A stretch of DNA of 64,000 bases from Ionaspis alba. Its lineage: Eukaryota. Below the pieces are notes generated by a model that searched no databases, was not told where the DNA came from, and worked only from the letters and a program-made list of their open reading frames with translations. The position numbers and the translations under genes were made by a program. Location: positions 1 to 64,000 of the forward strand of contig CAXUUL010000005.1 of NCBI GenBank assembly GCA_964255285.1. The letters run 5' to 3'. Positions within the stretch are counted from its first letter, which is position 1, and every line of letters starts with the position of its first letter. This document shows positions 31,942 through 34,392 of this stretch, one piece after another.

Positions 31942-34392
31942 ATGGTCCTTGTCAAGGACCTCGTGCTCGTGGCGAGCGTTGTTGCTCTTGTCAGTTGTTC
32001 TCAGCAACAAGCCGCTATCCCAGGTGGTCATGCTGCTGGCTCACTGTCCATGCCCGAAGGAAAGAGGCCGTTGGCCCAGCCTGATCTGGCAGCCTCATCA
32101 ACCTCGGCCTCTAAGGCCGCAAGGGCATCTCAATCTAGCACTACGACTGCAACACAGCCGTCAACCACCGCCACCACGAAATCGAAGGCCACCGGTAAAG
32201 GGTCGAAAACAACGGGAACCCCGTTGAATGAAGACAAATTACAAGGTCAACTGAGCAAATGGGAGAAGATGATCCTGGATTTCGTGAAGCAGTTGAAGGC
32301 TACGCTGTCAAATACCGGTGAAAAGAATGACCACCATGGGCAGAAAGCTCCCAAGCACAAGGAACAGAAGTCTCACAAGTCTAATACCAAGAGCTCCACT
32401 ACCGATAGTAGCTCTTCGTCTTCTACGAGCACCACCTCTCCTAGAGCCTCGAATTCCAAATCTTCTTCGGAAAAGAATGAACCGTTATCAAAGCTTTCGG
32501 CTCGTGATGCAGCTTTCGGCTCGCTCCTAGATGATATTGGCCACAAGATCGCAGTGCGCGAAAATCCCTCTGTCGCACCTACCGCGACCCCCAAAGATCA
32601 CTCAGCACCAGGTCAGCAGGATGCTCCCCCAAAAGAAGTGCCAGGTGCCGCGCCCGCACCTGTGAGTGTGTCGGGCGCTGTACCACATGCAATCCCAGGC
32701 GCTACATCGCTGATATCAGCGGGGTCAGCGGTGCCAACCCCACAGCGACCTAAGGTCGGCGGAGCCCAGTTCCACGAGCCGGAGAGCCCAGGAGCTGCTG
32801 CTCAAGAAGCTCATATGAGTATGTCAAAATCCGGGAATCAGAGCAAAGGTCCCCAGAGCTCCAAAAAAGATATAGGACGGTACCGATTGGCGATACAGGG
32901 CCAACGAAAGGGTCGTAATGGAAAGCTTCGTAAAGGAAGCTACTTACCAGACCAGCCACAAAATGGATACGGCATGCCAGGTGGACGACCAGGTAGTCCT
33001 CGAGGAGGCATGGGCTATCCAGGTATTCCTATGGGTGGTATGTCTCCAAACAATATGGCTGCAATGGGACCTCCCCGTAAGGTTGGTATCCCTACCATGA
33101 ACCGTGGTCCCCAGGCACGCTCTATTCCTGCCCACGCTCCACTCCGTCTCCGTGGAGTGTACCGCCGTCAAGAGTTTGCGGCAGATGAATCAAGCAATGG
33201 TACACCTCGCCAAGGCAAACTCGCACCCTACCGAGGCAGACCCGCACCCCAAGATCTTCCTCCCAGACCGGTAGACAACATGCGCTCCCTTTCTGACTCT
33301 GACGCTCGGCCTGGATGGCGCAAGCCTTCCCAAGCCAACAAGGGTCCCCATCGTAAAGATCCTGCGCCTTCCCGGCCGAACAGGATTCCCAATGACTCTT
33401 CCCGCTTCAATACCCACCACGAGATGGTCAAGATGCAAAAGCGACGCCAGGAAGTGGTGAAGATGCAACGACGGCTGGCAGCTGCTAGGAAACTTGCTAC
33501 TATGCCCACTACATGGCCTAGTTCTGTACCCAGCTACCAAGGTGACTCTCTTAATCATAACCCAAAACGCCGCGCCATTGTTTATGCGCGGGATCCCGAT
33601 CCGAAGGCTGACGCATACGCTGATGCTTACGCGGAAGCCGAGCCTGAAGCCCATCTATTCGAACGTGACGGCAGCTTCGATGGCGGCCTTTCTGCTCGTA
33701 CCGCGGAACCCGAAGCAGATGCCGAAGCGGAAGCGGAAGCGAAAGCAGAGGCTGATGACAACTTCGATATCTTTGCAAGAGACGCTGACCCGGAGCCTGA
33801 AGCTGATGCGGGACCCGATGCAGAAGCAGACGCCGAAGCGGAAGCAGAGGCTGAGGCGTTAAATGAGTTCCAAGCACGTGGCGCAGAGCCTGAAGCGAAA
33901 GCGGAAGCAGAAGCAGAAGCAGAGGCTGAGGCGTTGAATGAGCTTCAAACACGTGACGCAGAGCCGGAAGCGGAAGCGGAAGCGGAAGCAGAGGCCGTGG
34001 CGTTGAACGAGCTTCAAGCACGTGATGCAGAGCCTGAAGCGAAAGCGGAAGCAGAAGCAGAAGCAGAAGCAGANNNNNNNNNNNNNNNNNNNNNNNNNNN
34101 NNNNNNNNNNNNNNNNNNNNNNNNNNNNNNNNNNNNNNNNNNNNNNNNNNNNNNNNNNNNNNNNNNNNNNNNNGAAGCAGAAGCAGAAGCAGAAGCAGCA
34201 GCTAAGGCTCTACACGAGTTCTTCAACCGAAGCGCTGATGCAGAGGCGGAACCCGAAGCACAGCCGATTTATGAGAATGAGATTCACGCCAGAGACGCTT
34301 CTCCGGAGGCGGAAGCGGAAACGGCGGCTTTCAGGATCGTATCGAAAATCCCAATCAACTCCCCGGTCCACCAGGTTGGAGGAGAAGCGTAG
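31942..34392 (+). CDS. Secreted repeat-containing precursor (Kex2/Ste13-processed polyprotein candidate)
   Basis: Signal peptide MVLVKDLVLVASVVALVSC; low-complexity S/T-, P/A- and G/M-rich N-terminal regions; C-terminal repeats R-(X-A/X-P)n-short peptide. Interrupted by a 100-N gap, so the true length is unknown. Confidence 0.8.
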   Translation: MVLVKDLVLVASVVALVSCSQQQAAIPGGHAAGSLSMPEGKRPLAQPDLAASSTSASKAARASQSSTTTATQPSTTATTKSKATGKGSKTTGTPLNEDKLQGQLSKWEKMILDFVKQLKATLSNTGEKNDHHGQKAPKHKEQKSHKSNTKSSTTDSSSSSSTSTTSPRASNSKSSSEKNEPLSKLSARDAAFGSLLDDIGHKIAVRENPSVAPTATPKDHSAPGQQDAPPKEVPGAAPAPVSVSGAVPHAIPGATSLISAGSAVPTPQRPKVGGAQFHEPESPGAAAQEAHMSMSKSGNQSKGPQSSKKDIGRYRLAIQGQRKGRNGKLRKGSYLPDQPQNGYGMPGGRPGSPRGGMGYPGIPMGGMSPNNMAAMGPPRKVGIPTMNRGPQARSIPAHAPLRLRGVYRRQEFAADESSNGTPRQGKLAPYRGRPAPQDLPPRPVDNMRSLSDSDARPGWRKPSQANKGPHRKDPAPSRPNRIPNDSSRFNTHHEMVKMQKRRQEVVKMQRRLAAARKLATMPTTWPSSVPSYQGDSLNHNPKRRAIVYARDPDPKADAYADAYAEAEPEAHLFERDGSFDGGLSARTAEPEADAEAEAEAKAEADDNFDIFARDADPEPEADAGPDAEADAEAEAEAEALNEFQARGAEPEAKAEAEAEAEAEALNELQTRDAEPEAEAEAEAEAVALNELQARDAEPEAKAEAEAEAEAXXXXXXXXXXXXXXXXXXXXXXXXXXXXXXXXXXEAEAEAEAAAKALHEFFNRSADAEAEPEAQPIYENEIHARDASPEAEAETAAFRIVSKIPINSPVHQVGGEA
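33820..34210 (+). repeat. Coding tandem repeat: 69-75 bp units (starts at 33859, 33934, 34003) containing (GAAGCR)n hexamer microsatellites
   Basis: Near-identical units GCGTTRAAYGAGYTYCAARCACGTGRYGCAGAGCCKGAAGCG followed by GAAGCA/GAAGCG runs. Confidence 0.9.
34074..34173. other. Assembly gap (100 N, probably a placeholder size)
   Basis: Run of exactly 100 n flanked on both sides by GAAGCA repeats. Confidence 0.98.

Follow-up and report, generated by a model that had tools for sequence, protein, structure and literature searches.

Prepro-alpha-factor of Saccharomyces cerevisiae (MF-alpha-1) has an endoplasmic reticulum (ER) signal peptide followed by units of endoprotease site, acidic X-Ala/X-Pro spacer and peptide, which are processed by Kex2, Ste13 and Kex1 (PMC6339444, PMC9769878). 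Kex2 canonically cuts after KR or RR, and Ste13 takes off X-Ala and X-Pro dipeptides (PMC6339444, PMC9769878). Here we analyze a gene of the lichen-forming fungus Ionaspis alba that lies in a stretch of 64,000 nucleotides (assembly GCA_964255285.1, contig CAXUUL010000005.1, positions 1 to 64,000), which we call the window. The product of this gene, referred to below as the window protein, ends in an acidic array of short Arg-ended segments (cores) that alternate with runs of X-Ala/X-Pro dipeptides (spacers). An earlier note, made from the letters alone, had read this array as a library of short peptides released by cleavage after [LIVF]xxR and by dipeptidyl aminopeptidase (DPAP) trimming. The array is real, and we see about an even chance that the protein is processed in this manner.

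Comparison with described precursor systems

Like alpha-factor, the window protein has a signal-peptide-like start and units of endoprotease site, acidic spacer and peptide, and it is predicted to undergo DPAP trimming and removal of C-terminal basic residues. Alpha-factor has KR sites, whereas the window protein has monobasic [LIVF]xxR sites, and its cores are heterogeneous, 5 to 11 residues long, acidic and free of Trp and Cys, in an array that stands behind a basic disordered domain of 524 residues. The spacers of alpha-factor are 2 to 3 dipeptides long, and those of the window protein are longer, at 4 to 13 or more dipeptides.

Cleavage by Kex2 at sites of this type has been described. In a yeast pentapeptide library, Kex2 showed a strong preference for LxxR (PMC6258133), its P2 position tolerates non-basic residues (PMC8528282), and SIX1, SIX4, SIX6 and ToxA, which are cut by Kex2 in vitro, have LxxR in common at their pro-domain junctions (SnTox3 preprint, bioRxiv 10.1101/2020.05.27.120113). 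The earlier statement that LxxR is a described fungal Kex2 motif agrees with all three sources, in which it is published as an extended Kex2 motif. Effectors that have a Kex2-processed pro-domain (K2PP) with LxxR (Outram et al.; PMC8528282, bioRxiv 10.1101/2020.05.27.120113) resemble the window protein in their aliphatic P4, Arg at P1, variable P2 and P3 and disordered context. However, they have one N-terminal pro-domain junction in a folded effector, whereas the window protein has about ten C-terminal sites, each with a DPAP spacer. The window protein does not belong with them: [LIVF]xxR is present at 9 of its 10 sites, but these lie in the last third of the protein and are not followed by a folded domain.

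KEX2-processed repeat proteins (KEPs) with an STE13 signature (Le Marquer 2019, PMC6339444; Umemura 2020, PMC7329392; Vogt 2022, PMC9769878) share with the window protein the layout of a secreted repeat precursor and the STE13-type signature. A further likeness is that KEP products of Coprinopsis cut after a single Arg were detected in Pichia by peptidomics (Vogt et al., PMC9769878). The KEP pipeline cuts in silico at KR/RR and then at KK, drops the fragment after the last site, and demands at least 3 similar fragments and at least 15% repeat content (PMC6339444). Cutting the window protein at KR/RR gives 8 fragments of 22, 367, 92, 1, 9, 32, 1 and 272 amino acids (aa), and the gene is not callable as a KEP because the entire 272-aa array is the excluded last fragment. 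Set against this published definition, the window protein has a signal peptide by heuristic but lacks three similar dibasic-cut fragments, there being no dibasic sites in the array. The 7-aa LNE-type motif (3 assembled copies plus LHEFFNR) makes up ~3% of the 816 aa and the 25-aa units make up close to 12 to 15%, with the units inside a scaffold gap left uncounted. Rep1 of Ustilago maydis, whose peptides are longer, is another system with points of likeness. It is a secreted repeat protein that is cut by Kex2 into many small peptides acting at the hyphal surface (PMC6339444, PMC9769878); unlike the window protein, it has dibasic sites and no STE13 signature (PMC6339444). Among the papers listed by a literature search, the one with both STE13 and LxxR is a review of the MF-alpha secretion signal, and the search found none uniting Ste13/Kex2 polyprotein processing with fungal antimicrobial peptides.

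An acidic array phased by single Arg residues

The cores of the array (Table 1) are, in order, AIVYAR, HLFER, DGSFDGGLSAR, DDNFDIFAR, LNEFQAR, LNELQTR, LNELQAR, then the scaffold gap, then LHEFFNR, IYENEIHAR and ETAAFR. A script that cut the tail after each Arg and then stripped X-[AP] dipeptides from each piece reproduced the earlier parse of cores and spacers exactly. As had been reported, spacers begin immediately after Arg (8 of 8 that are visible; the ninth begins within the gap), and all 73 visible dipeptides are in strict X-Ala/X-Pro register. The second position of these dipeptides is Ala in 60 cases and Pro in 13, and the first position is E, D, K, Y, G, S, T, V, Q or A. Spacers comprise 4 to 13 dipeptides per Arg, and each run ends where the next two residues have neither Ala nor Pro as the second, the pattern of a pro-region of the Ste13 or dipeptidyl peptidase IV (DPP-IV) type.

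The residue at P4 is also restricted. The nine sites counted previously all have a hydrophobic P4, as claimed (V, L, L, I, F, L, L, F and I), but a tenth, ETAAFR/IVSK (here and below, a slash in a sequence marks a putative cut), had not been counted and has Ala. P4 is L, I, V or F at 9/10 Arg sites in the window protein, and the corresponding counts of hydrophobic residues are 1/10 at P5, 3/10 at P3 and 1/10 at P2. P2 before the spacers is A, T, E or N; i.e., these sites are monobasic. There are no KR, RR or KK sites within aa 545 to 816 and no K or R inside the cores. Trp and Cys are absent from all cores, in keeping with the observation that these lack the W/C-rich pattern of alpha-pheromones. 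The KRR that precedes the array is not conserved; orthologs show NPR or KSW, followed by xVYPR.

In the six reading frames of the window, which contain 11,739 Arg residues, Arg followed by at least three X-[AP] dipeptides occurs 22 times. Eight of these cases, including all of the long ones, are in this gene, and the other 14 are scattered, 3 to 5 dipeptides long and mainly Pro-rich. The Arg-phased X-Ala/X-Pro array is real and is far beyond chance. At the DNA level, Tandem Repeats Finder detected 6-nucleotide (nt) arrays beneath the acidic array as well as the 75-nt repeat listed in Table 1. Since all four Ala codons occur in the spacers (GCA 23, GCG 20, GCT 12 and GCC 5), the spacers are not a pure microsatellite, and the pattern of amino acids persists through synonymous changes.

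Table 1. Features of the gene and its product, in window coordinates
Feature	Positions	Strand	Residues	Remarks
Whole single-exon open reading frame (ORF)	31942..34392	+	816 aa + stop	from the ORF list; includes 34 X from the scaffold gap
Signal-peptide-like N terminus	31942..32001	+	aa 1-20	MVLVKDLVLVASVVALVSCS; heuristic
Basic disordered N-terminal domain	32002..33573	+	aa 21-544 (524 aa)	net charge +44
Candidate site K-L-S-A-R/D-A	32491..32511	+	aa 184-190	P4 is Leu; one X-Ala dipeptide after the site
KRR	33565..33573	+	aa 542-544	only dibasic site adjoining the array
Acidic array	33574..34335	+	aa 545-798	Arg-ended cores alternating with X-Ala/X-Pro spacers
Tandem DNA repeat	33824..34067	+		75-nt unit x 3.3, 82% matches; encodes spacer + LNE[FL]Q[AT]R; Tandem Repeats Finder
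Scaffold gap, 100 N	34074..34173			inside the acidic array; sole run of N in the 64-kb window
C-terminal 18-mer	34336..34389	+		IVSKIPINSPVHQVGGEA; best-conserved piece; 13/18 identical to P0001, 12/18 to P0011

Conservation in two orthologs

When 1.84 billion representatives were searched exhaustively with HMMER (E ≤ 1e-3), 9 proteins were returned, of which P0001 (714 aa, E 1e-67, 42% identity) is the sole true homolog. A word-indexed search from P0001 added P0011 (742 aa, 67% identical to P0001). We dismissed P0002 to P0007 and P0009 as EA/KA low complexity, and P0010 (word-indexed search, E 3.6e-3, five unrelated Pfam domains) as a composition match. A scan of the JGI metagenomes with the family alignment gave 279 pattern matches, none of which was confirmed as a relative. 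With only three members recovered by the HMMER, word-indexed and metagenome searches, the family is very narrow.

The tail of P0001 reads AVYPR/MSKF-KAEAYADAEPEA-DFEGDISER/GENVDDGLSAR/NADAEAEAEAEA-ET-EAEAEA-EDVSELVTR/DADAEAEAEA-ENDYDIYAR/EADPEAEADADADAEAEA-VMAISKIPINSPVHNLVGEA, and that of P0011 reads DVYPR/MS-EPEAEAHADAAPEA-QLEASIYER/SESFDDGLFVR/DADAEADAEAEAGA-GDDYLDIVAR/GADPDAEADAEAEAEAEA-ADISELVAR/DAEADAEAEAEADA-EIYVR/EADPDADPEAAAEA-VMAISKIPINSPAHNLVGEA. Both orthologs keep the architecture and the processing rule of hydrophobic P4, Arg at P1 and a run of X-Ala/X-Pro. P4 is hydrophobic at 5/5 sites of P0001 and 6/6 sites of P0011. When the three proteins are pooled, P4 is L, I, V, F or M at 20/21 sites, and hydrophobic residues are present at 1/21 sites for P5, 7/21 for P3 and 3/21 for P2; the background hydrophobic frequency within cores is 0.18 to 0.33. 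In all 117 strictly parsed dipeptides of the three proteins, the second residue is Ala (100) or Pro (17), and the first is one of 11 residue types. Because the strict parse halts at any violation, register breaks must be sought among the "cores." The earlier note had named orthologs that break the register as evidence that would speak against its reading. We found that the register is mostly kept but is broken at MS, KF, ET and ED/AD, which is a mild instance of such evidence. The spacers of the orthologs have 3 to 4 interruptions, with the MS break homologous in both, and the register is thus largely, but not perfectly, kept.

Conservation differs along the protein. Identity between the window protein and its orthologs is 39 to 41% in the N-terminal domain, 53 to 58% in the array (a value inflated by composition) and 67 to 72% in the 18-residue tail. 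The tail, previously treated as leftover sequence, is therefore the best-conserved piece. Between P0001 and P0011, 17 of 18 tail residues and 68% of the N-terminal domain are identical. The 18-mer follows FR/ in the window protein and stands straight after a spacer, as VMAISKIPINSP.., in the orthologs. Three core classes are recognizably conserved, namely, xVYxR, DxxxDxGLxxR and D[DN]x[FY]DI[FYV]AR; the best core pairs have BLOSUM62 scores of 25 to 29 for the last two classes (one weaker pair, with a score of 20, is excluded) and 12 to 14 for xVYxR. The cores that had been stressed earlier, LNEFQA, LNELQT, LNELQA and LHEFFN, are instead the least conserved, and their best ortholog matches are of the form [VI]SELV[TA]R. 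By their sequence, the LNE units look like a young, fast-evolving tandem expansion in the window lineage.

The same punctuation in other proteins

A search for shorter proteins with the tail of P0011 yielded P0012 (388 aa) and P0013 (229 aa). Homology of P0012 to the window array is undetectable by BLASTP (E 0.72), and the recurrence of the punctuation in P0012 is therefore not simple homology. The signal-peptide-like start of P0012 runs straight into EPEA. In this protein, 10 Arg residues precede at least two X-[AP] dipeptides; 9/10 combine L, I or V at P4 with a non-basic P2, and the remaining one is a KR. The cargo, which starts exactly where the spacers end, consists of repeated cationic peptides (KFPNLLKPIQKIFGR twice, KFPGGLLKPITKILGR and ILPLLGGLFAKKIMGGKGKR) and His-rich pieces. 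The pieces before the spacers are acidic-hydrophobic (EVDEDLFAR, SIDDALTDILYAR, SADQDDYVDALLAR and SFDGDYGDLFAR) and resemble the DDNFDIFAR class of the window protein. Because P0012 places such pieces between cationic cargo, the "cores" of the window protein may be pro-pieces or recognition modules and not signals.

P0012 itself is predicted from its sequence to be a polyprotein of cationic antimicrobial-like peptides, with a layout typical of insect and amphibian peptide precursors. In honeybee promelittin and the precursors of amphibian skin peptides, a long acidic X-Ala/X-Pro run likewise stands directly before the mature peptide, and P0012 pairs such runs with cationic peptides. Kreil et al. 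reportedly found in 1980 that the acidic pro-part of promelittin is removed stepwise by DPP-IV, and Ste13 is said to have been treated by Julius in 1983. These systems belong to animal venom and skin, and in melittin the run comes after the signal peptidase cut instead of an internal Arg site.

In P0013, four cores are flanked by spacers (EELLELFAR, EEFYDFFAR, EEEELYYLLGR and EELYELIER), and P4 is hydrophobic at 5/5 Arg sites before spacers. The comparison of P0013 with the window protein covers these features of the shared rule. Since the predicted model has no signal peptide, it is possibly truncated. P0008 (150 aa), which the HMMER search also returned, is small and unrelated, and its DA/EA spacers come after canonical KR/RR sites. 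Based on P0013 and P0008, monobasic and dibasic sites both occur with the same spacers.

Signal-peptide-like start and basic N-terminal domain

The signal peptide was called by a heuristic on hydrophobicity and small residues. The h-region comprises aa 7 to 17 (11 aa, mean Kyte-Doolittle value of 3.2), and sites with small residues at -3 and -1 lie at 18 to 20. This h-region is the sole hydrophobic segment of the window protein and of both orthologs, with no other hydrophobic segment of 19 aa in the window protein; since the N-terminal segment alone is hydrophobic, there is no membrane span and no C terminus of the glycosylphosphatidylinositol (GPI) type.

The 524-aa domain that follows, which falls outside the account given in the earlier note, is rich in S/T, P, G and K/R. 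Invariant columns of the three-ortholog alignment form conserved islands: a KWEKMI helix, KLS[AE]R-DA, GSYLP, MGYP and SSRFNxHHEM...MQRRLA. Two of these contain candidate cleavage sites. In the first (Table 1), K184, L185, S186, R188, D189 and A190 are invariant across the three orthologs; the second invariant site is M-Q-R-R/L-A (aa 508 to 513). In the window protein, aa 495 to 512 (33424-33477) are an internal duplication, EMVKMQKRRQEVVKMQRR, where both orthologs have a single EMIQMQRR, and this duplication brings a second dibasic site into the predicted helix.

The AlphaFold2 (AF2) model of P0011, built from a 3-sequence alignment, has a mean predicted local distance difference test (pLDDT) value of 43.2, with 576/742 residues below 50. 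It contains isolated helices only (signal peptide, KWEKMI, KLSERDA.. and HHEM..MQRRLA) and no folded domain. No Pfam family was above threshold for the window protein, P0001, P0011, P0012, P0013 or P0008. A sub-threshold match to New_glue covers an S/T-rich segment at 32065-32214 (aa 42 to 91; E 0.0021, 18.2 bits versus a cutoff of 31), and P0011 has a similar weak match (E 0.014); this match is probably compositional. The ESM Atlas gave no usable match to the array, the best feature score being 0.79, for P0011. The protein as a whole resembles a block polyampholyte, with a net charge of +44 in the N-terminal domain (32002-33573) versus -56 in the C-terminal region (33577-34389, aa 546 to 816). 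These charge blocks are kept in the orthologs, at +34/-33 and +52/-38.

Proposed processing and alternative readings

We propose that the gene encodes a secretory prepro-polyprotein that is cut at [LIVFM]xxR by a kexin-type enzyme and then trimmed by a Ste13-type DPAP, and we consider this reading about equally likely to be right or wrong. The signal peptide would be removed first. A Kex2-like Golgi endoprotease of the kexin type, or a different secretory protease with specificity for Arg, would then cut after Arg at the approximately ten [L/I/V/F]-x-x-R sites of the array, and probably also at KLSxR/DA and MQRR/LA in the N-terminal domain. A Ste13-type enzyme would strip the X-Ala/X-Pro pairs, 4 to 13 or more per spacer, until it came to a pair whose second residue is neither Ala nor Pro, and a Kex1-type carboxypeptidase would take off the C-terminal Arg. 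The mechanism would be of the alpha-factor/KEP kind, with the addition of monobasic sites, long spacers for the DPAP and a large basic domain. The predicted products are short acidic-hydrophobic peptides (DDNFDIFA, LNE[FLI]Q[AT], LHEFFN, IYENEIHA and others), the conserved 18-mer and fragments of the large basic disordered domain. Based on the sequence comparisons, we lean toward the 18-mer and the DxxFDIxA and DxGLSA classes as the active products.

We favor the prepro-polyprotein because the spacers are phased by Arg and restricted to Ala/Pro, P4 is hydrophobic, the cores are free of basic residues, there is a signal peptide, and the punctuation recurs in P0012. Ala and Pro have little in common save the P1 preference of Ste13/DPP-IV enzymes, and the combined features seem hard to explain as neutral low complexity. 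More tentative is the wider proposal that the dibasic-free rule is a general peptide system of this lineage, used by the window family, P0012 and P0013, in which the window gene might supply fast-evolving acidic-aromatic peptides and the 18-mer as extracellular signals or self-assembling surface peptides, a class that would be invisible to KEP catalogues.

Several observations count against processing. The residues at P2 (Ala, Thr, Glu, Asn, Pro and Val) are less than optimal for Kex2, for which K/R is canonical (PMC6339444, PMC8528282). Hexanucleotide slippage keeps even lengths automatically, and strict X-Ala alternation is also found in the unrelated EA/KA low-complexity proteins P0003 to P0007, which are surely not DPAP substrates. 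The orthologs break the register in R/MS-KF-KA.., in R/MS-EP.., at ET within a spacer and at ED/AD before [VI]SELV, and conservation of the repeated cores of the LNE type is poor, their best BLOSUM62 scores being -1 to 9. With only three orthologs found in 1.84 billion representatives, constraint can be tested only weakly. Finally, P0012 and P0013 were fetched through words shared with the query array and are thus a biased sample.

The rough balance of charge in all three orthologs (+44, +34 and +52 versus -56, -33 and -38) would fit a different role for the array. It could be a sacrificial pro-region that is processed, neutralizes and escorts the basic N-terminal domain through secretion and is then degraded, with the cores serving as protease-recognition modules and the N-terminal domain, or only the 18-mer, being the functional product. 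The conserved islands of the N-terminal domain are consistent with this, as are the weak conservation of the LNE cores, which differ in copy number among the orthologs, and the pro-piece-like placement of acidic pieces (EVDEDLFAR, SIDDALTDILYAR and SFDGDYGDLFAR) and spacers between cationic cargo in P0012. This reading is a serious rival, but we judge it unlikely. Three core classes and the tail are conserved at the motif level beyond what recognition of P4 and P1 would need, and the presumed cargo, the N-terminal domain, is just 39 to 41% identical, mostly low complexity, and without known function or fold in Pfam, the ESM Atlas or AF2.

A second reading that we find improbable dispenses with processing. 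The window protein would be an unprocessed secreted or wall-associated matrix or adhesive protein of the block-polyampholyte type, with a tail of low complexity grown by slippage and Arg motifs that are incidental. This would leave unexplained why 8/8 spacers begin exactly after Arg, why second positions are confined to Ala and Pro (Pro in 17/117) while first positions are free, why P4 is hydrophobic at 20/21 sites versus 1/21 for P5, why K and R are absent inside the cores, and why the same punctuation surrounds repeated cationic peptides in P0012, for which no homology was detectable. It does fit the near-complete predicted disorder (mean pLDDT of 43.2 for P0011), the S/T-rich mucin-like stretches of the N-terminal domain with their sub-threshold New_glue match, the 6-nt and 75-nt tandem repeats on which the array is built, the commonness of X-Ala alternation in unrelated low-complexity proteins (P0003 to P0007) and the narrowness and fast evolution of the family.

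A fungal mating pheromone precursor of the alpha-factor type (ppg1/MF-alpha class) is highly unlikely, and we rejected it on core composition and missing dibasic sites: the signal peptide, the repeated units and the Ste13-type spacers, described as typical of the alpha-pheromone precursors of Ascomycota (PMC6339444), would fit, but the array has no KR/RR sites, the cores are heterogeneous instead of near-identical, acidic, 5 to 11 aa long and without the Trp, Cys or Pro-Gly patterns described there for Pezizomycotina pheromones, and the protein is 816 aa long with an extra 524-aa domain.

Returning to the prepro-polyprotein, the gene probably encodes a monobasic precursor of small peptides that would go unnoticed in present catalogues of fungal peptide precursors. 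If monobasic arrays are used, KEP, alpha-pheromone and dikaritin catalogues would miss this class because they are built on dibasic Kex2 sites, and the missed class would take in the candidate antimicrobial-like polyprotein P0012. Small peptides secreted by a lichen-forming fungus are obvious candidate signals to the algal partner or to competing microbes. The array would also be a clean natural substrate set for asking how far recognition of P4 by Kex2 replaces a basic P2.

Gene model, scaffold gap and neighboring genes

P0001 and P0011 align with the window protein from Met1 to the C-terminal GEA, and this end-to-end alignment speaks for the gene model and for the frame on either side of the scaffold gap. 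The sequence beyond the gap is part of this gene, since its final 18 residues, together with the stop, align with the C termini of both orthologs. The KRR codons begin at position 33565, and the stop codon ends at 34392. The overlapping ORFs at 33190-33654 (-) and 34025-34510 (+, reading KQKQ) were rejected as frame shadows of the repeat.

The gap falls as GAN + 99 N, and the reading frame is therefore formally kept through it. The (GAAGCA)n-type repeat is identical in kind on both flanks, and the gap probably hides further array units. No contig of runs X1, most likely the source sample, and X2 bridges it, and neither of these two runs is recorded as RNA. Contig depth summed over 33868-33961 is 518, versus ~126 to 140 upstream, as short source-run contigs pile up on the repeat. 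One of these, a 154-nt X1 contig on 33904-34027, has 11 differences, and the six that are listed, translated by hand, give LNEIQAR/GA..KA. This variant unit probably derives from the gap, although it may instead be an allelic or assembly variant. Because a piled-up contig carries a variant unit, the assembled number of units is a lower bound. The X2 pieces listed are of low depth and identical to the window except for one base outside the ORF; run X2 thus gives no independent sequence.

The neighborhood was scanned through 11 of the 35 ORFs of at least 150 aa, namely, those between 21.8 and 47.5 kb, a range and size limit that leave smaller or intron-split genes outside the scan. A survey of lichen clusters for peptides that are synthesized ribosomally and then modified posttranslationally (RiPPs) reports UstY-type clusters but no repeated precursor (PMC12048977). 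We rejected a RiPP precursor of the dikaritin/ustiloxin type for the window gene, there being no DUF3328 (UstY) among the 11 ORFs scanned and no dibasic sites flanking the cores. Apart from one unmatched ORF, the neighboring genes are housekeeping genes: Eap1, an NDH2-type dehydrogenase, tubulin cofactor D (TBCD), sulfite reductase, hexokinase and SNF2-RING.

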